From NCBI GenBank assembly GCA_977020255.1, contig CDROCS010003345.1:124001-188000 (forward strand): 64,000 nt of DNA. The letters are read 5' to 3'. The DNA is from Obrimoposthia wandeli. Taxonomy: Eukaryota. This document shows positions 20,461-64,000 of the stretch, piece after piece; the stretch's first letter is position 1; every line of letters starts with the position of its first letter. The translations under genes were made by a program, and so were the position numbers. Below the pieces are notes generated by a model. The model ran no database searches. It was not told where the DNA came from and saw only the letters and a list, made by a program, of their open reading frames with translations.

Positions 20461-20498
20461 TAATATAAACAATATTAAAAAATGAAAGAGTATATGCA

Positions 20499-21651: not shown

Positions 21652-21737
21652 AATAATTAATTCAAAAATTTGCTAAAGATATGGGTGCTAACCCTTCTTT
21701 ACCTAAATTTAAATTTTCTTTCTATTCAAATTGTTGT

Positions 21738-22765: not shown

Positions 22766-23825
22766 AGTCTATGTATATGGTTTTACTTAGTAACGGATGT
22801 CCGAAGACTCAACCAGATAATTACGCTAGTAGCTTTATTATCGATTGGGAAAATACTATAAATCTTCAAGAAGAATGGGAAGCGGCTTTAACATAATTTT
22901 CCTTTTATTATTCTCCAATTACTATAAGAAAAAACTCACATATTTCGTTTACAAAAGAAGTTGATCATGAAAAATCAATTGAAGTTGTGATTGGGTTTGA
23001 TAGTAAAGGAAAATTTTATTACAATTGTATAGATAAAGAAGTGAAAGTAATATATGAACAAAACAAAGTCAGATTTAAAAATCGACTAAAACATTTTTAA
23101 AAACCTATTCAAATTATATTTGGATCTGATATAGAAGCTCTTCAATTCGGTTTTGACAGTGAACATGTAGTAGGTATGAAGAGATCTGATATAGCCTCAT
23201 CTAAATCGTTTAAAAATGTTCCTGATAGAGTAACAAAAGTGTTTTTAGTTGAAACGAGACCAAAGTATGTAGTGGAACTGAAAATGTTTTCAAAAGATTA
23301 TAAATTAGATAGTGAAGTGAATTTATGTAACTTATTACAGAAGGAATGTAGTGAATATTTCGATAAATGTGTAACATTAAAAAATGGTAAAATAACGTTT
23401 ACAGTAAAGAGAAATATAATATGAGTTTTATTTGTTGATAAACTCGCTAAAAACCTTGGTTTAAACATAAATACCTTTGAAACCCATACAATAAAAACCA
23501 TATAAGCTAAAATTAAGGCAAAACTTTAAATTCTGTTAATCATTTATATATTTATATTAATTTAATAGAACCAACGCTTGTAGGAGGACAGCGAGTTCCA
23601 CCTTTGAGAACAATATGGATATCTAAAAATGAAATAAAAGATGGGGACGCTGTCGGTATGTGTATAGATCAACCAATGTATCTTCCAGTTTCTCCCTTTT
23701 CTATAAACAATATTGAAGTAAATATTAGAGATGATTCCGAACAACTAATAGATTTCACGTACGGGGCCAAGACAAGTTTAACAATACATTTAAGAAAACA
23801 AAATGGCGAATCCAGCAATAATTGA
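22762..23825 (+). pseudogene. Minor capsid (penton-like) protein, disrupted
   Basis: N-term MYMVLLSN...PDNYASSF..W...I.L..EWEAAL; C-term LIEPTLVGGQRVP.LR...QPMYLPV...INNIEVNIRD..EQLIDF. Confidence 0.8.
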
Positions 23826-24102
23826 GGCTTATAGTCAAAGCCAGCAAGGTGGAGAATTACCATATTTTGTTGGCAAACAATATGGATCTGGCTGGCTTAG
23901 AACATTAGGTAGATTTGCCTTTCCTCTTTTAAAGAGACTCGCCCGATTTATATCAAAATTAGGAAAGGATTACCTTTCATCTAAGGACAATAAACTAATA
24001 CCAACTTTTAAGAAGCATGCGCTTGATGAACTTGATAATGTTTTACCTGAAGTTGCTAATTTGATTAGAAAAGGTAAATCAAATAAAAGCCAAAGATGCA
24101 AT
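23803..24102 (+). CDS. Polinton core/membrane-lytic-like protein N-terminus, in frame with the piggyBac transposase
   Basis: YSQSQQGGELPYFVGKQYGSGWLRTLGRFAFPLLKR motif (Q-GG-LP-F-G-Q-G-G) typical of the gene preceding the Polinton MCP. Confidence 0.65.
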
Positions 24103-25875: not shown

Positions 25876-26084
25876 CTTTATAAACTTATACCTAACTGTA
25901 ACTGAATAAACTATTAGACTCTCTGTGCCAGAGTACACTTCAAGTATTTTATGTTCAATTCATCATACTAATAAAGTCTGTAACTTTTTCTATTTTCTTA
26001 AAATACGTGTCCTATACCAATAAAGTAATGTTTTTCTATTTCTATAATGAATGGTTCTATAATAATTAGTTTAGCTTTTATGCT

Positions 26085-26248
26085 TTCTAAGAAACGTCGT
26101 TTAGGTAGTAGCTAATAGAGTACTTACTACCAGAACAGAACCTATTGCTTCTTTATTTGCAATGAATTCCAATGGAATAGGCTGGGGTGCAAAATGCACC
26201 CCAAACGTCGTTTACCTAGTAAAAACGTGAACAGCGAAGAACTGTTAA
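26085..26248 (+). repeat. piggyBac right-end region
   Basis: Palindrome ggggtgcaaaatgcacccc and repeated aaacgtcgttta motifs. Exact TTAA junction ambiguous (26229-26248). No left end visible. Confidence 0.5.
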
Positions 26249-27192
26249 TGATGCCATTGTACTCTTAATGATGTCAAAATTGAAGGTGGAAATTCTTCCT
26301 ATGCTCATAAAGCTTTGATTGAAAGTCTTTTGAATTATAGTACAGATACTCAAAATATTAATTTGGCAACCATTGGTTATGATAAAATAGTTGCAACTCG
26401 CAAAGAATGGATTGCAGGTTCTAAAGCTTACGAAATGTGTGGGTCTTTGAGATTGAATTTCTTTGAACAACCGAAATATTTAATTCATGGTGTTATTGTA
26501 CAGCTTCGTTTGAAACGTAATAAATGGAATTTTTCTTTGATAAGCACAGACGTTCTGAAACCTAGACTTGATATTTTGGATGCAAAATTGTATGTCCGAA
26601 GAGTTAAAACCGAGCAATCAGTTTTAATGGCATATAATATATGAATGGAAAAAAACAATGCTTGTTATCCTATTAAAGAAACTAAACTTATATCCTATTC
26701 TTTAAGCTTTTAATTAGGATCAAATTTTTGGTGATGTAAAATTACCGAAATTCATTTTAATTTCTTTTCAAAAAACTGCAAAGTTTCTAGGAAATTATAC
26801 GACAGATGCAACTCAATTTGACAATCTTAATGTAGGTTCAGTGACACTTTCAAGAAATACTGATTATCGCGAAACATATAAAACAGATTTCGAAAGTAAC
26901 GCTTATGCTTTAGCATATACGCAATCTATTATTCGGAATTTGGGCCAACTAAATAAAAATATAAACAATGGTATTTCTTTCACTGAGTTTAAAAGCAGCT
27001 GCCCGTTCTTCATTCTTCACATTTGTTTTGGCACCAGACTTTGATATAAACCAATGCCAACTACCAAAGGATGGAAATTTACGACTAGAAATTAAGTTCA
27101 ATGCAGCTTTAACACATCCTACTACGGTGCTTATTTACGGAGTGTTTGATTCGGAAATACAAATCAATAAAAACAGAACTGTCATATTATAG
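26245..27192 (+). pseudogene. Major capsid protein (double jelly-roll), N-terminus missing, frameshifted
   Basis: LNDVKI..GNSSYAHKALIESLLNYS, FFEQPKYLIHGV...LRL, LDAKLYVRRVK, F.LAPD...KDGNLRLEIKF..AL..PTTVLIYGVFDSEIQI.KNR.V. Confidence 0.88.
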
Positions 27193-27239
27193 AATGAAGT
27201 AAGACATTTTTTAAATTTATATTTATTAATTTTTATTTA

Positions 27240-27572
27240 GTTTAGTACAAGTACAAGAATCAGCAGAGAATGTCCTGGGTGATAAATTCAATGGAGTTTA
27301 TCCAATGATATGATCCCATTTTTCAATGTGGAGGTTACATTATCAATACTCATACTTCGAATTTACCGGGAGAACATTGGATAGCTATTTATGTTAGAGA
27401 GTGGACAATACATGTATTTGATCCACTTGCAATGTATTATCCACACAAACTTGTTTCAACTATTCAAAAAGAACGAAGAAGTGTATTTTACATCAAGATA
27501 CAATATCAGGATCCTGCGACGAGAAACTGTGGACATTTATGTATTTTATGGTTATCGTTGCAAAACGATTAG
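27240..27572 (+). pseudogene. Adenain-like maturation cysteine protease
   Basis: IINTHTSNLPGEHWIAIY...FDPL...YQDPATRNCGHLC gives the His-Asp-Gln-Cys set. 5' part frameshifted. Confidence 0.85.
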
Positions 27573-27836
27573 TGTGTTATAAAAATAAATATTTTTAAAG
27601 TTTTATTTTGAATTATTTTTTAAATCCCTAAAAAAATATAAGGGTAAAATAATAAAAGACTTAATACGAATTTATTTTAATACATTTATTAAAAACAACA
27701 TCACAATGAGATCTGTCAACGAAGATAAGGTCCATCCTAAAAAATATATTGAAATAACAAAAGGTTAGAGTCAAGGTGCCATAGGGATCTAAAATTTTAA
27801 TAAACTAAACTAAAAAAATCAAAAAATGAAAACCGT

Positions 27837-30800
27837 TTAAATTCGGAAGTGTCCATAAGCCAGGCTAGCGTTCTTTTCTACCCAAAAGCGCTTGTCGTCA
27901 TTACTACTCAAGGCGATTTTGGTTGATTTATGGCAATAGAGTTGATGGGCTCTTGAAATAAATCTAGTTTGCTCAACGCTTTCAATACACCCAGTATCAT
28001 AAACTTTCCGGTGGGCCTCACGTGTAAGATTGTTTCTTCCCACAACCTTTGCTCTCATTGAACATGTATTATTAGATGCCTGCAAACTGTAGCATTTAGG
28101 GCGTAGAAAAATACAATCATCATACAAATCTTGTCCCTCGCTTTCATCCTTAAATTTCCCGATAATATCCTTTAAACTCATAGAGTGTAGAGGATAGTTA
28201 GCGAGATATTTATGGGTATCTAGTAAGTTGTCCCTAAACATTGCTGGTAATAATTGATTATTTAAACTAACATTCCTACATTCTAAAAAGAAAAGGTCAG
28301 TGTCCCCAGCTGCTATTTTGATCTCCCAATTGAATTCTCGTCGATATTTCTCTAATTTTATGTATTGAAGCTCGTACATTCTGAGTTTAGAAATGTCTAA
28401 AACCGTTTGACCTATATAACTCGGTCGATCGAGACAAATACTCTGTTTTCCTAATAACACTGCTACCAAGTCATCTGCAATTGTAAAGCTACGCTTGAAG
28501 TTGGCATGAGGTAGAGGTAGAGTAAGCGTCCACCCATACAAATTATTAATGTCGATGTACAGAATCTCCGTGGATTGATTTTTGACAACATGATGTTTGT
28601 TGACAAAAGTCATTCCACCGCGTATACCATAATCATACATTTGATACATCGAGGGATCATACAGTAACTAGATATTAATTTAAAGGGTTTTTATTGCTGT
28701 TGCCCATGAAAGACCAGTTAAACTAAAGAAATGCATTGGATCTAGCCCATCTTCTGCTAAAGACTTTACACGAAAGGACTCAAAAACATCAGCTAAAAGA
28801 TAAATGTCTAACTTCATATAATAAAGCATATATTCTAAAAGATTTCGACAATTATTCACCCAAAATGTACGGGCCTCATTATAGTCTTGAAGACTTACAC
28901 CCTCAAATTCAGTTATGGGTGGGATTTCTGTTGTATTTTCTAAATCTGCAAACGTTTTCGCAAATTTATACAGAAAAATCCCCTTATTTATACAGAAAAA
29001 TCGCCATGCATTTAAAGATGCCGTTAAATTTTTTAAAGACCCACTCAAAAACTGCAGAGAATCTATGAATCTTAAACTTCAGAATTCAGTATATGCAGTT
29101 ACAATTAAATATTTCTCTGAAGTTTGAGGTATACATAAAATTTCCCAAGAGCTTAATGTACCCAACGCGTATTTAAGTATATGATGCAAATCATATCCTT
29201 TGAGATTATGAAACACGATGGGAATGCGTGGTTTTTTAGGGAGGCCAAGGTTACAGAGGTTGCACGCCGCTCCCAAGTATCGCCCCGTAACATGATAATG
29301 ATCTCTGACTAACTTAGACTGGGTTCCACACAAATAACATAATCTACAAGAATTAAAATTAACCCAGTCTATGCCTGTCATGATCATTGCTTGATGAGCA
29401 TTAAGATCATACCACAGTTTGACAATTGTTGTTCCTAATTCTTCTAATTTCAACATAAAATCTAAAACACAATTTGGGCCGGAAAATTTATGATACTGTG
29501 TAATATTGGGGCCTAAGAATAGTAGTCCTGCCAAATCCGGTAGGTGAATACTCTCATACTGGTCGTGTAATGCTAGAATTGACTCAAAATCTGCATACAC
29601 CCTGAATTCCACGGGTATTCATTTTGTCCAATCCCTGAATTTTAAATCCTTATCCTTAGGCATGCTATATAGCGTATTGTCATCAGGATTTAGTGAACAT
29701 AATGTCAGATGTTTGCTGTAAGAGAGCTCGGATCGGAATCCATGCAAACATCTATGACACCACTTACATCTTATCCTAACCGGTAAGGCTCCATTATCTA
29801 AATTTAGAAGATGATCTAAATTGGGAATTGCAGCATAATGGAATTTTTTATTATGTTCGAGCAAAATTAAGTTGACCTGAGTCCCCTCATTTTTGCTCCT
29901 ATAAATTACATCTAGAAAAGGATTTTTAAAAATTTCTTCGTCTGTTACATTAACTGGGATATCAGTATTATATTTGAATACATTAATACTCAAGTTATAA
30001 AGTAGTTCAAATCTTGATATCGCAGTTAATTTAACAGGAAAATCTATTCCATGATACTGCAATTCATTTAAAAAAGGGGTATATTTACTGACACGCTCTC
30101 TATGCTCAGTAATTACATCTCTTTGAGAATGGCCAACACGCTATACAGAAAGCAAAGGTTATCACTGTTTTGTATGTTAACAATGGAACGTGAAAGTTGA
30201 AGAGATCTAGGTGAAGGAATCTATGAACTCCCCGAAAGATATATCATGTCAGTGAACTTTGTTAGAACAAAGCTAACATCGTGAATTCTAACTAGAGTCC
30301 ATCCACTACTTAACTCGCTATAATTAGCAATTTTTTCATCTAGGTTTCTTCCAATTTCAGTTACAAAATTATCATAGAAAACAGTTGCTTTATGTGAAAT
30401 TACCCACGTTTTATTCTCCTCATTGACATTTTTAAACTGCACATTTGCGCAAAATTTAACCTTATCCTGTCCTAATTTAGTCACTTCTGATTTTAAAAGA
30501 CTTTCAATATTTGAATCTACACCTACGTTTAATAAAATTTCATTTCCTAATGGCACCTTAACTATAACATATTTATTCTTTAGGTGATACTCTATAGTAG
30601 CACCGGTTTCTCTACGTTTTTGGGGTGGGACCTTATTCAGAAATTGGTCTCGCCTCTTTCTTCCTACAGTCGCTGACAAACCTCCCCCTAATTGAACGCG
30701 AAGACAACTATTTATATTAACAGTTGAGGTGGAATGTGCTGCTATTGGTGATGCTGCCGATGTTGAGGCAATCGCAGCTGATGTAGACGATGCTGCTGTA

Positions 30801-31772
30801 ATAGATGCTACCGCAGATGATGAGACAGTGGCAGTTGTAAAGGCTGCATTTGAAGTTGGGGTAGCTGAGGTAGTAGCCGACATTGCCGACGAAGAAGCGG
30901 CTGTTGTAGAGGTTAATGCTGCTGAAATAAATATATTAAAAAAAATAAATTATTATCTCTAAGGCGTCTAGGCACTCGCAATGGGGGAGGCATTGTTGTC
31001 GTAGCGGACGACGGCTGTATCACGGTATTTCCTGAATAAAAAATAAAAAATAAAATATATATATTTACAATTTTAAAAAATAATCAGAAAAATAATAATA
31101 AAAAAGTACCTAATGAAGGCAATCCAACTAAAGTTGGTTGGAAGTCCTCTTCATTGACGGAATCCATCCAGCTGTCATCCGTGAACTCGACGAAATCGGA
31201 TTCCTCGGTGGTCTCCAACCAGCCGTTGTCGCTCCACTGAGGCTGCTTCATCTCGAAATCTGACTGGGTGATATTTTCCATGCAGCTATTGTCCGAGAAT
31301 TGGGTTGCAGGCGCCAACTCCTCAAAATCTTCTTGGGAGATGTCGTTCATCCACTCATTGTTAGTCATTTGAGTGGATGGGGCAGAATCAGGAGACGGGA
31401 GACCAATCGCATGACCGTAAAAGGGTTGATCGACTGCAACTGGAATTGGGGCAGGAGCTGGAGCGACCTGTGAATCGCGCACCAATTGCACGATATCACA
31501 CTTCTTGTTGTTGGTCGTGAAACAGGATAGGTGAGCTCGATGTTCACCGAATAAGTCTCGAAACACCTTCTCCTCCATTGTTCTGCAGAAGAGGCAGACG
31601 AAGAATTGAAGCCCGCGAGACTTTGTCCAATAGTATGCGGACATTATCTCCATGCAGGACTCTCCTCCATGCGGAGCCGAAGCACCACAATATGCTGGAA
31701 ACAGGATACACGTAATCTGAAATAATAAATATTAATAAAGAAATAATAAATATAGATTCTTACCATAGTCAT
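27837..31772 (-). pseudogene. polB: Protein-primed family B DNA polymerase with spliced N-terminal extension (disrupted)
   Basis: GSS*IP...IVNIQNSDNLCF, YADFES, RDH.HVTG.Y.GAAC..CNL, FHNLKGYD, Y..LDIYLLADVFE, GIRGG, YIDINNLYG, GDTD. Motif B (KxxxNxxYG) is deleted. Introns 31717-31763, 31032-31109 and 30922-30956 keep the frame. Confidence 0.9.
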
Positions 31773-31985
31773 TATTTCAAATAGTCGGGGACTTTAATGA
31801 AGAAAGTGTTTGCTTATATACTAAAATTTATGCACAGATGCTCTTTTCCTATTGGATTAAAAAATTGAATTTTATTGAGAAGGATTGTTTATCTGTTAAA
31901 TGGTCGAATTTTTTTTTTTTTATTCCCCCAATCAAAATAATTATTTGTAATTGGATGAAAATTATGAATTAGAAGAATTGTTTAT

Positions 31986-32469
31986 CTACATGTCTAGTAA
32001 TAATAAGATAGACTTAAACATTTTTTATATGCGCAATGGTCACCATGATTACGATATGGACAGCAAATATTTCGTGGAATTTTTAATAGATGATCACGTG
32101 AAATATTTAAAGTATTCAACCTCAATTTGGGAAAATATTTTTTTAAAGTCTTATACTTTGGCCATCCATTTCATCTAAAACATAAAAAATTCCAATTTCT
32201 ATATCCAAATTAGATTTTATTTTATCAAAAATACGTATTTCACAAAAAGCCTTATGTCCTTCTTTCCATTTTAATAAATGAAAGTAATTAGTTAAATATA
32301 AATTAGTAAATTTTTTCTTATAATCTAATCTTTTAAACGGAATATATATTTGAAATATGAAATGCAAAGGATGAAAAACGTCGCATACATCCATAATACA
32401 TAATTCTTTTATAATATAATCACCATTTTTGTTAATGAAAGCCTCAAAATCTATGATATATTCCTGCAT
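31986..32469 (-). pseudogene. DEDD/DnaQ-like exonuclease-type protein with C-terminal Cys/His cluster (frameshifted)
   Basis: YIIDFEAF...YIIKELCI...HF.F; shifted C-term ICCPYRNHGDHCAYKKC. Confidence 0.55.
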
Positions 32470-32584
32470 AATTATCTAAATTTGTAGCAAATCCCGTTGT
32501 TTATAACGAAAATAACCATTAATCAAAAATTTATTAAAATAACAAAGTACTCAGGATTCAGTCTTTCATATTAAGATTGGTATA

Positions 32585-33001
32585 GGAGATAATTTTATGT
32601 ATAATTTAATCCCATTTTTATTATCTATTTTACAAAACACATTATTTATAAATTTGTTTATATTTAGACAATTATGTAACATAATCAATAAAGACAAAAT
32701 AATAATCAAAAATTAATATTGTCAATTCTCCTATGAATATTAAAATAAATTATATTAAATGTAAACATACCTAAATATTTCGAAATTAAATTACATAATT
32801 TATCTCCAACAATTTCCGGAGTATCATTTTCTGAAAAGTAATGATTTTTATAATCTTCCATTAAATCTGGAGATAATTTTATGTATAATTTAATTCAATT
32901 TTAATTATCCATTTTACAAAAAACATTATATATAAATTTGTTTATATTTAGACAATTATGTAACATAATCAATAAAGACAAAATAATAATCAAAAATTAA
33001 T
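32585..33001. repeat. ~133-bp direct duplication (32585-32717 and 32868-33001) overlapping a small spliced gene remnant
   Basis: Near-identical ggagataattttatgtataattt...aaaaattaat blocks; minus-strand GT-AG intron 32731-32770 lies between them. Confidence 0.75.
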
Positions 33002-33029
33002 TTTTTTGTAGAAGGACCCTCTTCTGGTT

Positions 33030-33890
33030 TAATCTGGAGGATTCTCTTTCTTGGTGCTCGCCGAATCCTCCATCTCTTCTCTTATTTTTTCATCCACCTT
33101 CTTCTTTTACATTTTGATCTTCTTATTCCACTCCACGATCCGACGTCGTTCTGCTAGCCGCCTATTTTGTATCTCCACCCGACGATTCCACTCGGTTGCG
33201 ACAGCAGTATACAAATTTTGATTGAGGACCCTCTTTAGTAGCCTTTCTCTTCTGTGGGGCTTTCTTCTGTTTCTCCTCCTTCTCACGCTGAAGCTGACAT
33301 GAGACAGCATCCTGTTCCCCCTGTGAATCTGGAAGCATTGCCGGTGTATCCAGTTCCGCCAGGAATTCGTCCAATCCAGCTTTATCCCAGGCCTTATTCA
33401 AGTTCTGGTTGGTTGTTGGAGATGCAGTCTCCCAAGCCCTGGTCAAATTTGATGTATCCTGCAGGCGTTGTTGACTTGACGGCGGACTAATCTCGATCGG
33501 TGAGACTGGGATCCTCTCGTATAGAATTGGCCCGTCGTCCACTGGAGATGAGAGAATCTCCTGCCGTCCAATCACCGCCTCAGAAGAATGTCGAATTGAG
33601 GTGGAACATTTTCTCGAGCGCTTCGTCTTCTTCACCTCTGCTCGCTTCGTCCGTTTCTTGGGGAAAGGAGTAATTTCTCCCCATTTCTCCTCAATTATCC
33701 TACAAAATATTAATAAAATTTAAACATATAAATAATTTACCTCAATGACGGGCAGGTTAGCCTGTTTCACCAACTTGGCCTTATTCCGAGTGTGGGTTTT
33801 GACCCGAAGGCGTTGCGGTTTATTAACCGCCGCTTGCTTCCTATCCACCGGTTGAATAGGCGTCGCCTCTTCGAGAATGTTTTCCATCTA
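33030..33890 (-). pseudogene. Spliced basic/low-complexity Polinton gene, related to 14960-15360
   Basis: GT-AG intron 33700-33740 (the frame join needs an additional lesion). NLTRAW/NLNKAW..LDEFLAELDTP resembles TLDQAW..LNKILEADMP in the mini-Polinton. Confidence 0.5.
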
Positions 33891-35507
33891 TGTGAATTAT
33901 TAAATTTAATATCTAAATAATTTATCTTAAAATTATCTGGAGACGCTAGGTATCGGAGCTCACTCCTATTTTCATTCATACCGTCAAACTTAGTGTTGTT
34001 TTCTGTTAATCTCGCTTTAACTTAGTCGTTCTAACTTTTAACATAATTCAATATCACTGCTTCTTATAGTTGCTTACTTGTGATTAATCTAACTGCCACG
34101 TAATATAACTTTTATTCATACGAAAACTCTATTTTATTTTACTCAGTCTAAATTACACTCGCATTGAATCATACTCTCGACACTCTTATTTTTCAATTAC
34201 TTACACTGTCACCCATCCACAATTGCAGTTTTACAATCACTTGCTAAGACATTTACTTGTATTTTCATTCACTTGCATTCATTTACATTCATTCTAACTC
34301 TCATTTATTCAAACTAGCACGTAAATTAATATATTTACTAATTTTCATTCATACTTGTACTTGACATTCGTACTTGCAATCGTATTCTTTCTTACTTGTA
34401 CTTGTAACTGCATTCATACTTGTACTTGCATTCATTGTTAATTGTACTTGCTTTTATTTACATTTACACTTGTATTAATTCATACAATCGATGATTAATT
34501 TTACTTGTTCTCACAGGAGATTTTTAATATTTTAGAAAGTAGAATAATAAATAGAAATACTAAGTTGATAATCGAATATGTATATAATTTAATTTATTTA
34601 CATATAAAACAAATATAATTAAAGATTTGGTAATCTAATTTATAAACAAAACTTTCAGTAAATTTGAATTACATTTGTTTGCAAATTAATTTTCAATATT
34701 CGATACAAATATAATACATGTATAAAATTAATTTTTGCAGTTTTAAAAATAAAATGTTTTAAAAATATTTTCGATTATTTAAAGTGAAAATTGGATAATA
34801 TAAATACTCAACTTATATAAATAAATATTTTTTTAACCATGTTCTTTAAGAATAAAGAATTCAAATTTATCAGATTTTAAAACAATTCAATTAAGGAATG
34901 TTATCAAATGAGATAAGAAATTTTTAATGATTTATGTGTATATTTTTGATCATTGTAGCATATGAAAAAAACAATATGCGAAAAAAAGCTTAAAATTTCA
35001 CATCTTAATTAATATAATTTTAAATAGATTATTAATCTTATTCATTGATTGATAGTATTAATTTGATAATTACAAATTAATAATAACATTTTTCTTAATA
35101 ATTATTATATTTTTAATATTTTCATCATTATTTTTAATGCATAAATTACAAGCATGAAATTATGCAATTTTAAAAGTAATTAATATTTAACATATTTAAT
35201 TTAGAGTTATAATAAATAAGTTTGTTTTTGAATATACATTTGTTTAAATAATTCAAAAGTGATAATATTAAAAGAAATTTGCAGTAATTTAAAATATTGT
35301 TAAAATTATTGGCAGTATTCGACAGTATTCCTTAGTGAATTTTAATTTTTTTTAATAGAAATAAAATGAAATAGGTCACCTATTTTATTATTTTATATTT
35401 AATATTTACCAGAAAATGTATTAAATATATACGTTAATTAGACATTAGTTATGAAAATCTTTCCAATTTATGAATGTAATGTAATTAGATTTTAAGAAAT
35501 TTATTTT

Positions 35508-35710
35508 TGTTGAGATGAAGTAATTGAGTAATTTGGGTTGAGAAGACAAGATCTTGAAATTTTATTGATTTATTTTTATCAAATCCATAATAAATATGTA
35601 TTATTATTCATAATACATAATTACAATACTTGTAATAACAAAATGTGCACACATAAACAAAATGACAACACAAAGAGTAAAATAGTGTGCAATGAAAACA
35701 TATCACAACA
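35508..35710 (-). repeat. 3' LTR of the gypsy element
   Basis: TG...CA ends, direct repeat of 40176-40358. Adjacent PPT agggagaaagttaaa on the minus strand (35711-35725). Confidence 0.9.
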
Positions 35711-38700
35711 TTTAACTTTCTCCCTAAGTTATGGAGTAACAAAAAATAGAAACAAAAGAATGTGTGAGTCGATTATGAGGTTTTTATGGTGGTTATCCTG
35801 TTCCACGTTAGTAATAGTTTAAGGAATGAAGTGTTGTTGTTGGTTGAATTTAACGTGGTTTTTGTTGGTTTTAAATGGGGTTATGGTTTTTGTATTTCGG
35901 TTGTTAATAAGCGTCGGTGTTTGTTTTTTGTTGATGAGTGTTGTGTTATTGTCATGTTATTGTCATGTTCTTTTATGATGTTATATGGGCCGTCATATTT
36001 TGGTTCCAGTTGTCTGGTGTTGCGGAGTTTGATGTATGTTAGTTTGTTTTTAAGTATGGGTATGTGTGTCGGTGTCTTTACGTGTTCTGTTTGTGTTGTT
36101 GTGATCCGTGGTATGTGGTTTTTGAATACGCGTTGAGCTGGGCTTTTGTTATCGTTATGGTGCGGGGTGTTGCGTATTCCAATCATGACTTGTTAAATTA
36201 TCTTGGGCCAGTTGTGGGGTTGTTGTAAACATGATAAAGTTTCTTTAATGCGTCTATGGAGTCGTTAAATTTTCCCGTTAGATTGTGGATTGTATGTCGT
36301 AGTTTTAATGTGTTTGATGTTGTGGTTGTTGCAATATTCGTTGAATGTTTCGCTTATAAATTGTCAACCTTGGTCGGTTATGATTTTTGTGGGGAATCCA
36401 TATAAGGTAAACCACTGTTTGTGTAATTTGTTTAGTATGGTTGATGTTCAGATATTTTTAATGGGTACGGCTATACACCAGTTAGTGTTGTTGTCGAGTA
36501 CGGTGAGTAATAATGAATATTGTTGGTGGATTGGTAGTGGTCCTACGAGGTCAGTGTGAATAGTATGGTAAAGAGTATCGCATGTGATGTGTAATTGCTT
36601 GGTTGGTGTGTGTTTCTGGGTTTTGTAGAGATTACATGGCTCGCATAGTTTGACATAGTTTTGAGTGTCTTTACGCATATTTGGCTATAGGTAATGGTGT
36701 CTGATTAGTTCGTAAGTGCCTTTAATTTCAGGGTGGTGGATGTTATGAAATGAGCGATGCATTTTTGGTTTAGCTCTCGTGGTATAATTGTTCTTGTGAT
36801 TCCTGTGATAGTCGTATCGTACCATATGTTGTTAAACATTGTGAAGTTGTATGAACTACGTGTGAATTTATGTAGTTCTTGTTTCCCGATGATTTCGTGT
36901 GGTTGGAAGAGTTTATCGATTGTGTTTATTTCGTATAGTTCGGATGGTCTAGATAACGTATCAGCTATAATGTTCGAGGAACCTGGAATATATTTAATGG
37001 TTGTGTTGAATTGTGAGATGTAGTTTAGTTGTCGTTGTTGTCTTGGTGTCGGATGTTTCATATGTAATGCGTGTATTAGAGGTTTGTGGTCGGTTTAAGT
37101 GGTGAAAGTTTTGTCTACTAGTTGATTTTCGAATTGTTTAGTGGCTTGATAAATGGCTAATAATTCACGGTCATATGTTGAATATTTGATTTGGTGTGTC
37201 TTTAGTTTTTTTGAGAAAAATGCTAGTGGTGATATTTTTTCGTTGACAATCTGATTGAGTACGGCTCATGTTCCTAAGTTGGATGCATCGGTGGTTAGTG
37301 ATATCTCAGCGTTGTGTATTGGGCTGGATAATGAAGTTGCCGTTTTAAGTGCTTCTTTTGCATTGTCAAAATCTTTCAATTGTTGTTCGTTAAGTTTAAT
37401 TTTCGAATTTTCGAATTTTTATTTTTGTTTTTTATTATTTCATTGAGTGGTGCTATATGTATATGTGCAGCGTTTTTAATATGTTGGTGATAGAAGTTTA
37501 TCATTCCTAGAAATCCGCGTAGTTGTTTTACCGTGTTAGGTGGTTGTAATTCGCTTATCGTTTTTATTTTCCCGGTGTTGGGACTGATGCCGTCTTTTGA
37601 TAGTGTGAAACCTAAAAAATTGATGGTTCTTCTATTAAAGCTGCATTTTTCTTCATTGAGTGTTAATTGATGTTTTTTGATTAGGTTTCTTACTATTGTT
37701 ATATCTAAGTTGTCTTTCGTCTGGGCTAGCTATTAATATATCGTCAATGAAAGTTATGACATTCGGGATGTTGGAAAATATTTGATCCATATGTCGTTGA
37801 AATGTTGATACAGAGTTCTTTAAACCAAATGGAATTTTTATATATTCATATAGACCGAATGGTGTGATTATGGCGGTTTTCTGGATATCTTCAGAGTTCA
37901 TGGGTATGTGGTGATATTCTTATTTTAAGTCAAGTTTCGAAAAGGTTGTTGCTCCAGCCGTTCTTCTTATGATATCGTTGATTAAAGGTAATGGATAGGC
38001 GTCAGGTGTTGTCATAGTGTTGAGTGCTCTATAATCTCCACAACAGCGCCATTCTCCTGATGTTTTCTTTTCATCATGAGTGCAGATGCCCAAGGTGAGT
38101 CTGACACTCTGATCGTTCCTTCTTGTAATAAATTAGTGAAAGTAGTTTTGGCTGCTGCTAATTTGTCTGGTGGTAGCGGTCTTACTTTGGCATGGCATGA
38201 ATATCCTATTGTAATAATTTTGTGTGTCGTGTTGTGCTTCTCTTGTATAGGTGTGCTCGGTGCTGTGATGTTCTGTTTATCAGTGTGGTTAATTTCGGGT
38301 GTTTCATATATGATGTTTTCAGGAGAGTTTGTTTGTATGATGATTTATTAGGCGCATATGAAGAGTTGCATCTTGGATGTCGATTATTATTGTGGTAGTT
38401 GCCTTGTATTATTGAGTTTTCTTCGTTGACAGTTTTTGTGAAGTCGGTTTTCGTTAATATTGTTCTGTCTTTGCAGTCTATCATAAAATTGTGTTTTACG
38501 AGGAAATCAGATCCTATTATCGGTTGGGATACGTCCGCGATGATAAAATTCCATTGGTATGCTGTATTGATTATAATTAAATTCAGTTTTGTTTCGCCGT
38601 ACGTTTTGATTGTGGTGTTGTTTGCTGCGATGAGGTTTATGTGATGTGTGTTGTATGTTTTATAATTTTTTTGGGTGCATAGTGTATATGGAATTAGTTA

Positions 38701-40159
38701 TAACGATGATTCGGAATCTATTAAAAAATTATATGTGGTGTTGGATGGTTGCGCCTTGAAAGTGGAATTTATACCGACGTATAATGGTGCGTTTATACGT
38801 GGTATTAATCGTTTTTTGGAAATGAGCACGGTGCTTCACATTTATATGCGTTTTTTCCGTACGTTTTATGGTAGTAACACATGTTTGGTTGTGAATCTTT
38901 TTGCGATGTGTGAGATCCGTTAAATTTGAAGTGAGGTGAATGAGTTCTTCGGTGAAAGTGTGGTGATTGATTTCTCTGGTGATGTGCAGATGCTTGGTTT
39001 TCTTGGTTGAAATGGGGCGGTTTGTTGTAGTTTCTTATGATAAAGTTTTGTGATTGGTGTGTTGGATGGTATTTTGAGTAAGGTGGTTGATCTCTGTTGG
39101 ATGGGAGTTGTTTCTGTAGTTATGTCTGTGGTTGTTTCGATTATTAAGAGTGATTTTCCTGAGGAGTTTGTTATTCTTCGCTAGTTGATGACTGATGGCT
39201 AGTAATATTGTGTTTTGTTGAGTGTCTTCGTTTTGTGGTGGGTGTCTGATGTGGTTGGTCTCAGTGTGGACTCTGTTATGATGGATATTGTCTGCAATGT
39301 CAGTCATTTTCTCTATGTCTATGGTGTTGGTTGCGGTTATTATGTATCTGGTGTTTGGTGGTAAAGTTTTAAGGAAACACTCTTTGAGGATGTTGGATCG
39401 TGGTGTGAGTGTTGTGGGTCAATGTTGTATAATTGTTTTTTCAAATGTTTGAGTAGTTGTGATGGTGTTTTAGAGTCTGTGTTAGATGGATTGAGTAATT
39501 GCTCGAGTGCGTTTTTTGTCACGTTTCTTCGATTTTTATTGATGTGCCTAATTAACTCTTTCGTGGGGTCTTTGTGGCTTAGAATGTCATTAACATCCTC
39601 CGCTATGGTCTAGATTGTGGTAGCGGGCAGCTTGTTTATGATGTGTGTTGTGATCTCTATGTTGGTATGTTTGTCTGTGGATATTAAAATAATATTTGTT
39701 AAATTTATCCAATCGGTTGGATTGTTGCTTTCATCAGCAAAGTATTGTGAAGACTTAATGTGTGTGATGGTTGGTGGTTGTGTTTTTGGCATTTGTGTTT
39801 GTTGTATTTTGAATGTTGGTGAAAAGAAGTGTTGTATGTAGAAGTGTTAGTGACTAGTACAGTTAAGAAGAACCTAGGAAAAAAAGAAAAAGGCAAATGT
39901 TAAATGTTGTGATATAAGGGTTGTGATTCCCACCGTCAGAAGTTGCCAGAACGATGGTAGAACGGTTGGATGGTGTGGAGAGTAGTTGTAGAGGGTTGCT
40001 GGATCGAGAGTTGGTCGTTGTTTGTAGTAATTTGTTCGCGTTGGTTGTTGTTTGTTGTAATTTGTTTGCGTTAATCGTTGTTTGTTGTAATTTGTTCGTG
40101 TTGGTCGTTGTTTGTTGTTTGTTGTAATTTGTTCGTGTTTGACGTTGTTCGTTGTAATT

Positions 40160-40172
40160 TGTTCGGGCGCCA
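40160..40172 (-). promoter_or_regulatory. tRNA-Lys-type primer binding site
   Basis: Minus strand TGGCGCCCGAACA, 3 nt from the 5' LTR; matches the tRNA-Lys(UUU) PBS. Confidence 0.85.
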
Positions 40173-40175
40173 ATT

Positions 40176-40358
40176 TGTTGAGATGAAGTAATTGAGGAAT
40201 TTGGGTTGAGAAGACAAGACCTTGAAATTTTATTGATTTATTTTTTATTCATAATACATAATTACAATACTTGCAATAATAAATAACAAAATGTGCACAC
40301 ATAAACAAAATGGCAACACAAAGAGTAAAATAGTGTGCAATAAAAACATATCACAACA
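40176..40358 (-). repeat. 5' LTR of the gypsy element
   Basis: tgttgagatgaag...tatcacaaca; adjacent PBS. Confidence 0.9.
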
Positions 40359-44060: not shown

Positions 44061-46158
44061 TGTTGGGGTTTCTATATGAAACTTATAGATCCTCTTGAAT
44101 GTGGAGGGCCCCAACGAGCTCCCAAAAACAGGACTTGTAAATGGTTGTGGCCTACATAAATGAGATGCCATTGCCTGTCTCAATTCTTATCTGAAGGTTT
44201 GTTGTTTTGTCTTAATCTGAAGGGTTTAGAACAATGCTTTCTAGTTGTAGGAAATCGTTTATTTATTAAACACACTAGACTAACACGAATCAATACGTTT
44301 ACGTACGTATTTCTAAAAGGTTACAGTAAAATTCCTAAGACTTATGTAAGTCTCTACACAAGTGGGGATGATCCACGTATCGATTTTAAGTTTATGTTTG
44401 TTTTAGTTACTAGAGTCTTTACTCTCAAAATAGGGATTGATTTTAGAGAGCTGCTGCTCTAAAAATATAAGTAGTTTAGAGAGCTTATTTCTCTAACTGG
44501 GGATGGAGTTTAGTAGAGCTGTTGCTCTAAATTATGGGTAGAAATATGGGGTCAGTTCATTCAAAATGTGGGACAATTTATATCAATTTTCCTTCAAAAT
44601 TGCTTATAAAATTACTGTACAATATCAATGTACTCAATTACATTTTTTATTTCCCTTTCAAAAATGGCCTCTGAAATTACTGTAAAATATCAATTTACTC
44701 AAAACTTTCATTTTCAAAAATGGCTTCTAAAATCGCCACAAAATATCTGTTTACTCAAAACTTTCTTTTTCAAAAATGGCTTCTTAAATCGCCACAAAAT
44801 ATCTGTTTACTCAAAACTTTCTTTTTCAAAAATGGCTTCTTAAATCGCCACAAAATATCTTTTTACTCAAAAACTTTCTTTTTCAAAAATGGCTTTTTAA
44901 ATCGCAACAAAATATCTGTTTACTCAAAACTTTCTTTTTCAAAAATGGCTTCTTAAATCGCCACAAAATATCTGTTTACTCAAAACTTTCTTTTTCAAAA
45001 ATGGCTTCTTATATCGCCACAAAATATCTGTTTACTCAAAACTTTCTTTTTCAAAAATGGCTTCTTAATCGCCACAAAATATCTGTTTACTCAAAACTTT
45101 CTTTTTCAAAAATGGCTTCTTAATCGCCACAAAATATATGTTTACTCAAAACTTTCTTTTTTTTAAAAATGGCTTCTTAATCGCCACAAAATATCTGTTT
45201 CTATATTTCCTATCTCACCAATGTTTAGGAATACCGCCGATTCAATCTGCGTCCCTGCGATATCCTGCGAATCCCTAGCTTGAGATAGCTGGGCCCGTGA
45301 GCTGTTGATCCGTTGTGTTTGTTCCTCGGCGTTCGATCCAGCAATCCACGTATGCTGGCGAGATTGGCGATTCCGGAAAGATCTGCGAGATCTGTTTTGC
45401 AATGAAATTGATTCACTAACTGCTCTTCTCTTACCTTGTGCTGCTGATCCGCTGTGTTTAATCTGATGCAGTTCCGATCCAACAATTTACGATTTGTCCA
45501 CTAAATTCTTCCTTGGATGCAAGGCAACTTCTCCAACCAAATCTCCGAGATTTTACGATTCTTATCCTTTCTTTTAAACGTTGATTTACTCAAGGCTCTT
45601 TTTTCCAATCAGCCTCCTTTTATTTAATTTTGAGTCAATTACGGCAATTCTCTGTTATCGATCCTGCAATTAGGGAATTCAACTTGCACTGAAAATAAGT
45701 GCACTTACGTTGCTGGCTAAAGCTGTTGTTTCTCCCGTCCGTGTTCTGCTCGGTTCTCGTCGGTCGCTAATGGACTCTGTCTGTTCGGTCGCTAATGGTC
45801 TCTAATGGATGAGGTAACAATTTTGTTTGCTCGGTCGCTAATGGACTCTAATGGATGAGTTAACAATTTTCTAAATTAGCACTTTACCTTGATTCTTCTT
45901 TTAATTGGATTTTTCTTCTTCTAAATTATACCTTCTTTGCTAATCTTTTGTGAGGGCCTTTTGCTTTTAATTTTAACTTCTTATATACTGCACATCATAC
46001 ATGACCTTCGTGGTCCTTAAATATTTTAACGTACCCCTTTTAATTTCAGCAATTCAATTTTAAATAATTTTATTTTAATTATAACCTTGCTTTCAAGGAT
46101 TTTATTTTGATATAAATTAAATCAATTATTTAATATTTATCAAATCCTAATCCTAACA
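44061..46158 (-). mobile_element. Solo LTR (2098 bp) with 4-bp TSD GTGG
   Basis: tgttgggg...cctaaca termini; gtgg at 44057-44060 and 46159-46162; minus-strand TATA (~45980) and AATAAA (~44260). Homologous to 59085-60652. Confidence 0.9.
44655..45202. repeat. ~56-bp tandem array (~9-10 units) inside the solo LTR
   Basis: Unit aaaatatctgtttactcaaaactttctttttcaaaaatggcttcttaaatcgccac. Confidence 0.92.
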
Positions 46159-59084: not shown

Positions 59085-60652
59085 TGTTGGGGGTTCTATA
59101 TGAAACTTTTCAGATATAGATCCTCTGATGGAGGGCCCCAACGTGAGTTCTATAGAAGCAGGACTTGTAGTTGTTTGTGGCCTACTTAAGCTATGCTTGC
59201 CTATCTCAATTTGTGTCTGAAGATTTATTATGTCTAGGTGTTGCGAAATGTGTGAAGAGCTGTGTATACCGGTATTACAAAATTCCCTTAGTGTGGTGTT
59301 GTATATGGAGTTGGTCGACACCTACTTACTTGCAAGGGTTCGGTTCAATACAACACTGTCTAAAGTAGGAAATCTTTATTTCTAAAACACACGAATTTAC
59401 GTTCTAACACGTTCTAAAAACCACAATACTAATCCTAGTTACTTTGCACAGTCTCTACACAAGTGGGGATGATCCACGTATCGACTTTAATTTAGGGTCG
59501 TTGGTTTACTAGAGTCTTTGCTCTAAAAATATGGGCAAGTTAAGGTTGTAGATTTTATGGAGCTGGTTACTCTAAAAAGATGGGCAAATTAGGTTATTGA
59601 TGTTAGAGAGCTGGTTGCTCTAAAATATGGTTTGATTTTAGAGAACTGGTGGCTCTAAAAATATGGGTTGATTTTAGAGGGTTTAACTATTTTACGGGTT
59701 CCGGTTCAGTGGGACTTGTGCAATGTGAGAAAATCAACTTATGAATATTATGTGACAATATAGAACAATTTAACTTCACACTTTTCTTCCCTAGCCCTCT
59801 CACCTCCTCCGGATATCCTTGGTTCCTTCCTCGCGCTGTCTGCTACGACTCGGCTGATCCATCGGTGTTCGAGTGTCCGGTAAGTCCTGGTTCCTGTCTT
59901 GCTTTGTGCTGCTGATCCGTTGGTGTTCGTTGATAAATTCGACCTCGGTTATCTTTGTCGATTTGACCTGTACGTCTGGTAATTTAATAGGCAAATTTAT
60001 TCCTTCTTACGCTATCTGTTCCGGCCTCAAAAAGCAAATTGGTTTCGGTGATATATTTTTCTTCGACTAATAAGTTTCTCGAAATTACTGACTCTTCTCT
60101 ATTTTTTCCGGCCGTTTTTCAGAAGCACCAACTATCATTTTTGGAAATTGTCTGCCTGAAATAATCACGTAAGTGGCTTTTAAAGTACTTAATTTACCTT
60201 CTTCTTCTCAGGCGCTATTGGACTCCAATTAGATTGAGTCTCGAAGAAATCCCTGCCGTTCGTTTCCTAGACAGCACTTATCTCGATCAGTGTGACTCTG
60301 TGGCGACTCGCTGATGCTGAGTGCTGACGGCTGGTTGCTCCCACGCTAAAGCAATTAGTTCTTGTCTCGATACGCTGGCCTTCTCCTTAATTAATCTTCT
60401 TTCTTTTCTTTTCTTTAATTAGTTCTTAATTCTTGGGCTAAATTCTTTTTTTGGGGCCTTTTTGTAAAATGTAAAATCCCTTATATACAGCACATTAAAT
60501 CATGGTCCTAAATATTTTTCCGATAAAATTCTATTTAATTTTAATTTAATTTTAATTTAATTTTATTCCTTATTTAACCTTGCTTTCAAGGATTTATTTT
60601 GCTATATAAATAATTAATTATTTTGAAAATTATTCAAAACCTAATCCTAACA
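59085..60652 (-). mobile_element. LTR (1568 bp), probable 3' LTR of a large element extending beyond the window
   Basis: tgttgggg...cctaaca termini, homologous to 44061-46158. TATA (~60480) and AATAAA (~59375) on the minus strand. Flanks agtt/tagc do not form a TSD. Confidence 0.85.
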
Positions 60653-60954
60653 TAGCTCGGGGGTTCCAAAAAAGTTACGTCCCCGAACGTATCGATTTTA
60701 ATTCACTTAATCCAAGATTTTAGAAAAAACATCCCCACTTAACTTCAAACATTCAAGATACTCATCAAACTTACCCACTTATCGACAAAATTCGGTATAT
60801 ATTTTTTGTTGTTGAATAAAATTCAGACATTGTCAACGAATGTTTATTTTAATATGTAATTTTACAAAAATGATTTTGAAGAATGAGAAGGATTAAGACA
60901 AGAAAAGGAGAAGGGAAGGAGATGGTGTTAATGTCAGGTTAGTCAATCGTCAGG

Positions 60955-61446
60955 TCAATTGTCAATAGTCAACAGCATTACCCGCTTCAAGGGCAATGTT
61001 GGGAATGTTTGAGTCTCGCCGAAATACAACTCCAGTTGTTGGAAAATGTCAAGGTGGGGGCTCTGACGAAATTGAGGGGCGCCGAAACTGTGTTGCTCAT
61101 GGGTGTTGAGCCACACTCTCCGAGCATACTGCCACGAGTGGCGGTCACAGCTAGACCGCCACACCTCTCGGGTGTTGCGCTGTGCGTCGCGACGGCGCAC
61201 AGGACAAATGGGGCATCGGCACCACTCGCCACCGATACAACTGGTGGGTGAGCGTGTGCTCTTTGAACGTCCACGGCAGTGAACCGTACAGTCTGCGAAG
61301 GGTGCCCTGCACATTGGGCAGGTGATGTTGTTGGCGGGCCGAGCTTTGGCTCACATGTATAGACATGTCTCGTGGAACCGGTGACGGCACCCGGCAGGGA
61401 TTGCCGAGGAGTCCCAGATTTTGCTGAGACAAACCGAGCATATCAT
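60955..61446 (-). pseudogene. RING-H2 protein 3 (one in-frame TGA at the conserved Trp)
   Basis: MICSVCLSKIWDSSAIPAGCRHRFHETCLYM*AKARPANNITCPMCR, followed by a Cys-rich segment CRCPIC. Confidence 0.75.
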
Positions 61447-61745
61447 CTGCGCGAATGGTGTATTGGTTAAATCACTTTCTCTATCTGAAGCTTATATGAT
61501 TTTAGACCTAATATTTTAACTTACCGAACTTTGTCTTTTATTTGGGTACGTTCACATTCTAAGTATATAAAAATTGTCTTTTTGGTTTTTTTATCAGTAT
61601 AATAATTACAATTTCAAATAAACATCATACATAAAAATGGTAAAGGTAATTTAATGTTTCACAAGATTATCCAATATAATTACAATTTATGGTAGATATT
61701 TTACCGCGGTATGCGATACACAGGGTTAGTTCATGATGTCACGTT

Positions 61746-62432
61746 TTATGTCAAAAAGTTACCTTCAGTTATTGTTGGCTGTTGGGCTGGCCTGTGCGTC
61801 GCTCCTCCACGCAGAACATACACCAGCAGTCGCAGATGTCCTTCCAGCAGTGCACGATGGGTACAACTGCTTGAAGACAATCTCAGTTGTATACGTAGTA
61901 TACCAAGAAGGATGTCCTGCACATCGGGCAGGTTGAGTAGTCGAGGGGCGTGTTGCTGTTGACAATTGGGATCCATGTCTCGAGGCACTGGACATGGAAT
62001 TTGTGTCCGCAGTTGTTGGGTTTGGAGTAGAAGTCCACAATGTCCTCGTAGCAGATGGAACATTCTCCAGACATTGCTGTGAGAGGGGTGATGTTGAATT
62101 TGGGCTCGATTAAGGGTTGGTTGTTGTGTGATATTTACACAAAAGTGGTCGGATCTTGTCGTTCTGATGTACAGAAAAAACACCAACACTCTCAAAATTT
62201 TCCAAAAAAATTCCACCTGTACATCTACATCCTCTTGGTTGGGTTCTATTATGATGAACTTTGTGAATTGTTTTCTGCATACAGGGCAACGAGGATATGT
62301 TGGATGGGGAAACTCTCCATAAGTTCTGATCCATTTTGATAAACATTCCTCGTGGTGTAGGTGGTTGCAGGCATTAGGTCTTGTTCTTCGTTCGGGTATA
62401 TCTTCCAAACATATTGGACATTCCTCAGACAT
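61746..62432 (-). CDS. RING-H2 protein 1 (3' extent uncertain; overlaps RING 2 in another frame)
   Basis: ECPICLEDI...PNACNHLHHEECLSKW...CPVCR, then hydrophobic FFWKILRVLVFFLYI. Confidence 0.8.
   Translation of the reverse strand: MSEECPICLEDIPERRTRPNACNHLHHEECLSKWIRTYGEFPHPTYPRCPVCRKQFTKFIIIEPNQEDVDVQVEFFWKILRVLVFFLYIRTTRSDHFCVNITQQPTLNRAQIQHHPSHSNVWRMFHLLRGHCGLLLQTQQLRTQIPCPVPRDMDPNCQQQHAPRLLNLPDVQDILLGILRIQLRLSSSSCTHRALLEGHLRLLVYVLRGGATHRPAQQPTITEGNFLT
61883..62074 (-). CDS. RING-H2 protein 2
   Basis: ECSICYEDI...PNNCGHKFHVQCLETW...CPMCR (C3H2C3). A Cys-rich CDCWCMFC segment follows the stop in the same frame. Confidence 0.8.
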   Translation of the reverse strand: MSGECSICYEDIVDFYSKPNNCGHKFHVQCLETWIPIVNSNTPLDYSTCPMCRTSFLVYYVYN

Positions 62433-62559
62433 TCTAAATACATGATGACAATTAATTTCTACATGAATTTTACATAATTCTACACTTGTTTGTACATTCG
62501 CTTCTACATATCTCTACATATTTTTACACACTAATTTATTTACAACCTCCTCTGCCTTG

Positions 62560-63996
62560 TCATGTCTTGATGGGAGGCGGAGGTAAGGGTCGAAATTCCA
62601 CTTCCTCCATCATGGGTGTGTTACAGCATCGTAGCTCTTTGCATCTTCGCTGTATTCTTGGGCATATCTGACTGCCTTTCACGAACACGACTGTTAGTGG
62701 AAATACTGCAGTTGAGACTACGGCCATTACGATTAAAGCATTGACTGGTGTCATTCCGCTGTCTGATGATTGGTAATCGTACTTTATTTTGATGTTTGTT
62801 GGTTTGGATGGCGTTTCTAGTGGTGCTGTTCGGTTTCTGTGTATGATGTCCGATTTTTTAATAAATCGCAGATTTGGATTTTTTGGTTTTTGTCTAAAGG
62901 GTATTAATATTCGAGATTTGAGATCCAGTGGAATCGTTCCCTTTACTCTTCTCCTCTCGATGACTGTGCTTTGGTTTCTGGAATTGGGCTTTCTTCCTTT
63001 CACCTTTGCCTTCTTTATGATTGTGTTTGGTTTCTTGGACTGGAATTTCCTGGGTCTGATCCACGTACCCATTCCACGAAATCGCCTTGTTTGACACTTT
63101 AAAGTTACATATTATATTTGACCTGTTATTACGATGATTACAGTAGAGGTTTCTTTAGCATTACTAGGGATTCGGTTACATAAACACTCTGCATCATAAT
63201 GTGGTACTAAATTTTGGGGTTGTATTGCAAATTTGATTCCGTCATCTGGATTGGGACACGCCACTGTTACCTTGTCAGTTTCTAGCAATATGAAAAATAA
63301 ATTAACGGAATTCCATACAGTTTTACGTCGTTTACCTGTGACCATAATCATGTCAATAACTTTCCAGATGCGCTCATCATTAGGCAATATTACTGATTTT
63401 GTTCGGATAACTTGGATAATCTGTTTCTTTTTATATATTGTTATTCGTAGGTATAATACCTTTTCATAATAGAATAGGATCAGTCGGTAGTAAAGTGTAT
63501 GTTTGTCAATCTTTATTTCAATCTCGCGGATAACGTACAATTTCTGATCAACATTTTCGGTTGCGGATGTTTGTAGTTGAATGTCTATTATGTGATTTAA
63601 TTTTAGTAAAGGTATTTCTATGTATAACGCACGTATCGTATCTTGTCTCCATTTACTGATCATGATCTCGTAACCAGCCTCGATCGTGGTGATTTGTATG
63701 ATCAGCATGATTCCTATTATCATTCGGTTCCGGATCTCAAGAACTTCTCTGGGATAACCCAGATTACTCATAAAGTATGGCCTTTCCTCGATACGTTCAA
63801 AAATCGTTGGCTGATATTCCGGTGCTGGTTCATTTATGAATGCTGGCCTTGGTAGTGTTGTGTCGATTTTTTGTAAATTCATTTGACCTGCTTGTCTTGC
63901 GAGATCATGACCATTCTTTTTTGATTTCAGCTCAATCTTTGTACAACAAATCAAGATAAGTAATATTAATATTATGATTCCGATAATCAATGACAT
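62560..63996 (-). CDS. Putative membrane protein ORF(s) in the env position; two in-frame ORFs separated by one TAA (63112-63114)
   Basis: Hydrophobic segments LIIGIIILILLILICC and MIIGIMLIIQITTIEA, Cys-containing middle, basic region, TM-like LIVMAVVSTAVFPLTVVFV, Cys-rich PPPP tail. May start beyond the window. Confidence 0.55.
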
Positions 63997-64000
63997 GATT

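Follow-up and report, generated by a model that had tools for sequence, protein, structure and literature searches.

Three RING-H2 genes form the fixed 3' cargo of a Burro-like, env-bearing Ty3/gypsy element in Obrimoposthia wandeli

Three small RING-H2 genes, RING-A, RING-B and RING-C, are the fixed 3' cargo of an env-bearing Ty3/gypsy element of about 23 kb that has a GAG-ENV-POL (Burro-like) layout, and to judge from their sequences they likely encoded small ubiquitin ligases. The 3' end of the copy described here lies in a 64,000-nucleotide stretch of a 1.35-Gb assembly (positions 124001-188000 of contig CDROCS010003345.1, or C3345; hereafter the window), in which the following features concern us:

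44061..46158, minus strand: solo LTR of a diverged subfamily, with the 4-bp TSD GTGG, inside a 30-bp tandem array
59085..60652, minus strand: 3' LTR (TG...CA), with a TATA at 60487 and the shared AATAAA at 60598; no purine-rich PPT adjacent
60939..61446, minus strand: RING-C gene, ATG at 61446; RING-H2, C-x5-CxCxxC and a C-terminal IDLT SIM-like motif; stop inside in this copy
61769..62074, minus strand: RING-B gene, ATG at 62074; RING-H2 and a cysteine cluster with CxCxxC; stop inside in this copy
62135..62432, minus strand: RING-A gene, ATG at 62432; RING-H2 and C-x6-CxCxxC; frameshifted in this copy
62560..64000, minus strand: ORF-X, the 3' end of the polyprotein, with several hydrophobic segments, no Pfam family, and a proline-rich tail followed by a stop; runs past the window

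That the minus strand carries three C3H2C3 RINGs, as the original prediction had it, is borne out by matches to Pfam zf-RING_2 in the window frames (E 6e-9 for RING-A, 1e-9 for RING-B and 3e-5 for the half of RING-C that precedes its stop), and none of 300 shuffled versions of the segment contained the RING-H2 pattern. All three genes are disrupted in this copy: RING-A by a frameshift near residue 76-81, RING-B by a stop codon at 61885-61883, after amino acid 63, and RING-C by a stop codon at 61353-61351, after amino acid 31, with its SIM-like motif out of frame. The cysteine cluster said to follow the second and third RINGs is there (CxCxxC in RING-B and RING-C), but the hydrophobic segment said to follow the first is an artefact of reading the wrong frame beyond the frameshift and is rejected; open copies of RING-A show a CxCxxC instead, which in this copy lies in the other frame (62191-62138).

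Open natural copies encode proteins of 99 (RING-A), 101 (RING-B) and 175-176 (RING-C) amino acids, which match zf-RING_2 at E 2.9e-9, 2.5e-9 and 5.6e-9, respectively; RING-A reads open in 20 of 54 copies and RING-B in 31 of 55. All three share a layout in which the RING-H2 is followed, some 25 residues on, by C-x5/6-CxCxxC. They are paralogues, with identities of 38% over 93 aa (A-B), 38% over 88 aa (B-C) and 32% over 53 aa (A-C). The C3H2C3 ligands are present in RING-A, -B and -C, as are the E2-binding I/V, W and P and the linchpin R; zinc ligands plus the full set I/V-L-W-P-R, residues that we take to face the E2, are intact in 36 of 40 (A), 41 of 47 (B) and 25 of 30 (C) matched RING cores. 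AlphaFold predicts a RING and then a beta-hairpin, with pLDDT values of 86-94 over residues 1-30 and 51-70. RING-C ends in (E/V)PTIDLT(I/M)D, the IDLT of which presumably fits the pattern of a SUMO-interacting motif (SIM). It occurs in 38 of 51 RING-C tails (four of these gapped) between variable adjacent residues, and sits in a low-confidence part of the predicted structure; open RING-C copies have this single SIM-like motif, and RING-A and RING-B have none. One copy carries, after RING-B, a diverged RING-C-like ORF without the first CxxC, which hints at a variant cassette.

The original prediction placed the RINGs in a giant LTR retroelement. A second LTR, pol and gag are indeed found upstream in the sense direction, on the same strand and to the right of the window, along with an env and a primer-binding site (PBS); the element is large, but at about 23 kb its size is modest beside the more than 30 kb of Burro (PMC6431247). 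Counted without the Polinton that splits it, it measures 22.9 kb, being interrupted after 65153, resuming at window-equivalent 96916 and extending to a 5' LTR at 111488-113729. In sense order it comprises the 5' LTR, a tRNA-Met PBS, Gag, a ubiquitin-like (Ubl-like) domain, a BCL2-like domain, Env, protease 1, BIR, an IAP-type RING, protease 2, RT, RNase H, integrase, DUSP, ORF-X, RING-A, -B and -C, and the 3' LTR, and its PR-RT-RH-IN order is that of Ty3/gypsy (Metaviridae). The Env (PF24664, E 1.5e-64) is of the gB/mononegavirus type and lies in frame between Gag and PR; BIR, the IAP-type RING and DSPc match at E 5e-14, 8e-6 and 7e-35, and the DUSP is closest to DUSP10/MKP5. Gag matches Pfam weakly (E 0.018). 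For the Ubl-like domain, 13 of 13 PDB matches are ubiquitin-like, the best of them weak (E 0.089), and one relative matches ubiquitin at E 4e-5. The BCL2-like domain gave no match in a single-sequence search, and with a five-sequence profile its best natural protein was Bcl-xL (E 0.012), which ranked below designed helical repeats. Protease 1 is mostly deleted in this copy and is seen in others.

One open frame spans the BCL2-like domain to Env in two loci and Env to PR in three, and for 15 of 19 adjacent motif pairs there is at least one natural copy in which both motifs lie in a single open frame, a sixteenth pair having been found separately. None of the copies examined is open from end to end, the longest ORF being 1,047 aa. 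All probes from Gag to RING-C (protease 1 aside) occur in this order at nine of 27 long loci; the remaining long loci are deleted, truncated or interrupted. ORF-X ends at the same stop (about 62560) in 32 of 33 motif matches, and the RING genes are located between this stop and the 3' LTR.

Directly 3' of the RINGs there is, as predicted, an LTR with a TATA box on the minus strand, but the AATAAA that is common to the LTRs lies upstream of that box. The element's own 5' LTR is without its outer 37 nt or so; a perfect 4-bp TSD is present in three other full copies, and one more has a TSD with one mismatch. The PBS is complementary to the tRNA-Met of this genome over 18-19 nt. It begins 8 nt inside the LTR end, a greater distance than usual, and the segment before the 3' LTR (60653-60700) has no purine-rich tract, a conserved non-purine motif standing there instead. 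LTR pairs are 90-98% identical by block; because most copies have decayed and the LTRs of a pair differ by 2-10%, any function of the RINGs may be historical.

The family is numerous. A 32-mer from the start of RING-A has 650 matches with at most one mismatch (its reversed control has 0), which is a lower bound on the number of copies and includes some tandem units, and RING-C gave 150 matches among the 150 scored, nearly all of them full length, at 76-100% identity. That the RINGs belong with this LTR holds elsewhere in the genome: 59 loci chosen for the cassette or for RING-C have an LTR match in all 59 cases, ORF-X in 58, RING-B in 58 and RING-A in 57. A further 20 loci picked by the RING-A motif only all adjoin ORF-X, with 13 keeping RING-B, 10 RING-C and nine the LTR; the inspected loci among them have a truncation or an interruption, and there is no stand-alone RING-A among the 20. 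Pieces of the element also occur as tandem units, both at 149-163 kb of C339, where ten units of 1.54 kb each hold the end of ORF-X and a truncated RING-A, and in units of 5.5 kb and 11.5 kb elsewhere (C2588, C2730).

RING-A, -B and -C were under purifying selection, and in the coding frame only. Variants were counted against the commonest codon in each column at 56 loci, after removal of three segmental duplicates (20 loci had been selected because their RING-C is open), and those present in at least four copies gave pN/pS ratios of 0.18 (A, 54 copies), 0.23 (B, 55) and 0.12 (C, 51), as against 0.87, 0.66 and 0.94 for singletons (Fisher p 4e-4, 5e-3 and 7e-20 versus shared variants). Control ratios were 0.68-2.7 in shifted frames, 0.52-1.4 in antisense and 0.70-1.10 in spacer, none of them below its own singletons at p<0.05; elsewhere in the element, shared variants gave 0.05 for the DUSP and 0.28 for ORF-X. 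The original prediction had proposed a dN/dS test of the RINGs with other copies; the purifying selection seen here recurs in the independent sample of 20 motif-picked loci, with ratios of 0.24, 0.15 and 0.09 for A, B and C (16, 12 and 9 alignable copies). The low ratios of shared variants, set against those of singletons, indicate that the proteins mattered while the family spread and that copies decay after insertion.

Because an ORF lying behind a polyprotein of about 5,400 codons needs a subgenomic mRNA of its own, we infer one for each RING gene, and the sequence around the start codons suggests that these mRNAs would be spliced or trans-spliced. A splice-acceptor-like YAG (62434..62436, minus strand) lies 1 nt before the RING-A ATG, and like AGs lie 2 nt before that of RING-B (62078) and directly before that of RING-C (61448). 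The chance of finding a YAG 0-2 nt before an ATG is about 0.05 for each gene, although the three sites are not independent because the paralogues may share one ancestral acceptor. The AG is kept in 54 of 54 (A), 46 of 55 (B) and 50 of 54 (C) copies, a retention that is not above that of many spacer AGs (controls 4/54 to 51/51), and a search of 44 LTRs yielded no conserved splice donor. Introns interrupt the host SUMO gene, of which no intronless copy was found, and this gene likewise has an AG directly before its ATG. For the ORF3s of other LTR elements, spliced messages are the usual route, according to the part of that account available to us (PMC5408684).

Searches for relatives of the RINGs reached the RING core and stopped there. 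The combination of RING and CxCxxC had no homologue in either of two protein libraries, in IMG/VR, in the Polinton or among 20 further genomic RING loci; proteins of 55-177 aa included no candidate homologue of RING-B, and none of the best 150 profile-search matches had a RING followed by CxCxxC. In IMG/VR, 24 loci match the RING core only, structure searches recover the RING fold only, and the second cysteine cluster matched no known family in profile or structure searches. The nearest look-alikes in the Atlas are viral small-RING clusters only (0.91-0.92), and those from Foldseek include PE38 (E 3e-4) and ICP0/IE2 (E 2e-3 to 1e-2); being confined to the RING core, with weak E-values, they are leads and not kinship. 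Two donors were considered and set aside: the Polinton, which has no match to the RINGs, and a host RING gene, since among 20 of 150 listed zf-RING_2 loci the only matches beyond the core are the element's own copies, the other loci being 30-39% identical to the element RINGs over the core. The genome also holds a large family of intronless genes of about 300-335 aa (on C736, C143, C289, C1051 and more) with an N-terminal RING-H2, a helical middle and a C-terminal cysteine cluster. Many of them stand in tandem arrays, such as one on C289 in which 18 copies are spaced 3.3 kb apart. These genes are unrelated to the element RINGs beyond the core and are possibly an expansion of host defence E3s.

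As to function, the reading we prefer is that the RINGs were spliced accessory E3 ligases, with RING-C acting in the manner of a STUbL or ICP0 against host silencing or defence proteins; we judge it to be evenly balanced between right and wrong. Under this reading, each RING gene would have for its translation a separate subgenomic mRNA, made by splicing or trans-splicing, and the proteins would recruit a host E2 and act as ligases. The IDLT of RING-C would bind host SUMO, so that RING-C could work like ICP0 or RNF4 on SUMOylated repressors, and RING-A and RING-B would reach other targets via the CxCxxC domain. Together with the IAP, BCL2-like domain and MKP-like DUSP of the polyprotein, the RINGs would ensure that the host cell survives and stays permissive while the element replicates. 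The anti-defence role that the original prediction proposed is somewhat strengthened, as far as sequence motifs can do so, by the SIM-like motif of RING-C and the intact E2-binding residues. In the portion of the literature at hand, a RING plus a SIM is the STUbL layout, used by ICP0 against SUMO-dependent silencing (PMC3174244), and RNF4 carries four SIMs (PMC12751080); the single SIM-like motif of RING-C, with none on RING-A or RING-B, therefore counts against the STUbL reading. Also against an anti-silencing role is that the IAP of the best-studied relative, Burro1, acts on apoptosis and not on silencing, as stated in the part available of a paper that cites Lee 2026 (PMC13465017).

A serious competitor, although we consider it rather improbable, is that the RINGs were active E3s of a cell-survival or stress module formed with the IAP, the BCL2-like domain and the DUSP, acting on apoptosis or on JNK/p38 and maybe benefiting the host stem cell, as is reported for Burro1. 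The polyprotein does hold BIR, IAP-type RING and DSPc domains, with a DUSP of the DUSP10/MKP5 kind and a weak BCL2-like domain, and the BIR-RING of Burro1 shields stem cells from caspases (PMC13465017, in the part available). However, the three RING-H2s come without a BIR, TRAF or death domain, and each is a gene to itself, whereas the IAP RING is part of the polyprotein. Moreover, a SIM points to SUMO substrates, which are largely nuclear.

If the RINGs served the element's own cycle, whether by attaching ubiquitin to Gag, Env or ORF-X so that they enter ESCRT budding or by clearing pieces of the polyprotein (Ubl-like), we might make sense of their company, since the element has an Env, a weak ubiquitin-like domain and a membrane ORF, and a SIM could bind the element's own Ubl. 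This we regard as unlikely: three relatives with the same Env-in-polyprotein layout have at their 3' ends a DEDDh exonuclease (two of the three) and otherwise ORFs of no known family, with no RING, so that this mode of replication does not need RINGs. A still smaller chance attaches to a role as zinc scaffolds or as decoys, in which they would bind E2, SUMO or DNA/RNA but would not ligate productively, and so act as dominant-negative sinks or transcriptional activators. The proteins are very small, their second cysteine cluster is of no known family, and the viral IE2, PE38 and CG30 RINGs act as transactivators, but all three paralogues retain the linchpin Arg and the residues of the E2 face. 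Finally, the notion of hitch-hiking DNA, under which the RINGs came from the host or a DNA virus and have no function for the element, to which their breakage here and in most copies and the insertion of Polintons into the element might lend colour, is scarcely credible and already largely refuted by purifying selection confined to the coding frame, the fixed order in all full copies, the lack of any stand-alone RING-A in 20 motif-picked loci, and the absence of a match to the Polinton or, beyond the core, to 20 other genomic RING loci.

The Polinton that splits the element is 31.8 kb long (window-equivalent 65154-96915), with terminal inverted repeats of about 95 nt and a 6-bp TSD. Its IAP resembles that of the retroelement both in the segment before the RING (38% identity over 103 aa, E 2e-15), where solved IAPs, which match the BIR or the RING only, do not, and at the RING end (59% over 39 aa). 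These likenesses suggest that IAP cargo is shared between retroelements and Polintons. We make no such claim for the DUSP: at 31% identity, the two versions appear no closer to each other than to cellular DUSPs. Tentatively, and as something possible more than probable, the element might be pictured as carrying alternatively spliced accessory genes like those of complex retroviruses, including an ICP0-analogue STUbL that would strip SUMO-dependent (piRNA/heterochromatin) silencing, with anti-apoptotic cargo swapped with co-resident Polintons. The same Polinton encodes, besides the IAP, a TBP-like protein, a DUSP-like ORF and an ORF with two SIM-like motifs, and it seems to contain a second, inverted Polinton. 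Another Polinton, decayed, occupies 18400-33700 of the window and has an inserted piggyBac-type transposase (24607-25872, PF13843 E 1e-56).

The element is Burro-like but is not Burro, with which we compared it by description; the comparison drawn in the original prediction proved apt in the layout of the polyprotein (Ubl, BCL2-like, in-frame Env and BIR, the first two weakly supported). Burro/GYPSM1 are giant planarian gypsy elements of more than 30 kb with one huge polyprotein of about 4,900-5,100 aa, and they have in common with our element Gag, an in-frame mononegavirus-type Env before PR, BIR(+RING) and RT-RH-IN and, putatively, a Ubl/SUMO-like and a BCL2-like domain (PMC6431247). Cargo related to apoptosis and ubiquitin was thus already known from Burro (PMC6431247). 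Unlike Burro, our element has two proteases that flank the IAP, and a DUSP and a membrane ORF after IN; the MATH, ankyrin, dUTPase and CCHC features of Burro had no Pfam match in the 12 decayed element ORFs scanned. Three separate 3' RING-H2 genes set it apart as well, and do not figure in the portion of the Burro description at hand (PMC6431247).

Gene order and Env class also agree with the GAG-ENV-POL errantiviruses with gB-type Env, known in Platyhelminthes, Nematoda and Bryozoa according to the part available of a recent account (PMC13524379), the main text of which contains no occurrence of RING, accessory or ubiquitin. In a tree of 44 sequences chosen from 240 matches, the RT-RH region groups at 99/99 with 25 proteins, 16 of which have Env in the polyprotein. 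Relatives in this GAG-ENV-POL clade have two or three proteases, and what lies between these differs (ankyrin, Ig, C2H2 or ubiquitin-like domains). The element's Env was not found in viral contigs.

Like HSV-1 ICP0 (PMC3174244) and baculovirus IE2/PE38, the proteins have an N-terminal RING, an intact E2 face and, in RING-C, a SIM-like motif; the RING is likewise followed by a predicted beta-hairpin. Unlike these, they are RING-H2 and not C3HC4, measure 100-176 aa, have a single SIM-like motif (on RING-C) and are retroelement-borne, and the likeness is one of the RING core only. Rotifer LTR elements with an enzymatic ORF3 also have accessory ORFs other than env that sit between pol and the 3' LTR, but there the ORF is single, encodes DEDDy or GDSL and, in the part of the account available, shows no clear departure from neutrality (PMC5408684), whereas here there are three paralogous RINGs under purifying selection. 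No account of three separate RING genes, or of a RING array, at the 3' end of an LTR element turned up in a search of sources other than Grohme 2018, Lee 2026, supplements, Repbase and Dfam.

To the Burro picture, in which cargo takes the form of polyprotein domains, the RING cassette adds accessory genes that stand apart at the 3' end. To our knowledge, anti-silencing weapons have been described in few animal transposons. Three proteins of 100-176 aa, the targets of which could be found by standard proteomics, make degradation of the silencing machinery by animal retrotransposons a testable idea.

Several minor observations concern the surrounding genome. A separate element of 4.65 kb, bounded by direct repeats and carrying a protease-like ORF, lies at 35506-40358 of the window, and another multicopy element (BEL/Pao-looking, a label given by eye) has a ubiquitin-like domain fused before Gag-like ORFs. 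The assembly is contaminated: bacterial COX1 genes are numerous in it, and its animal mitochondrial sequences are of two types. The main type, which reads best with table 9, a code that makes a flatworm host likely but that echinoderms share, is divergent and present in eight similar copies, one of them in a 271-kb contig of 27% GC; the second reads best with table 5 and is probably food or contamination.
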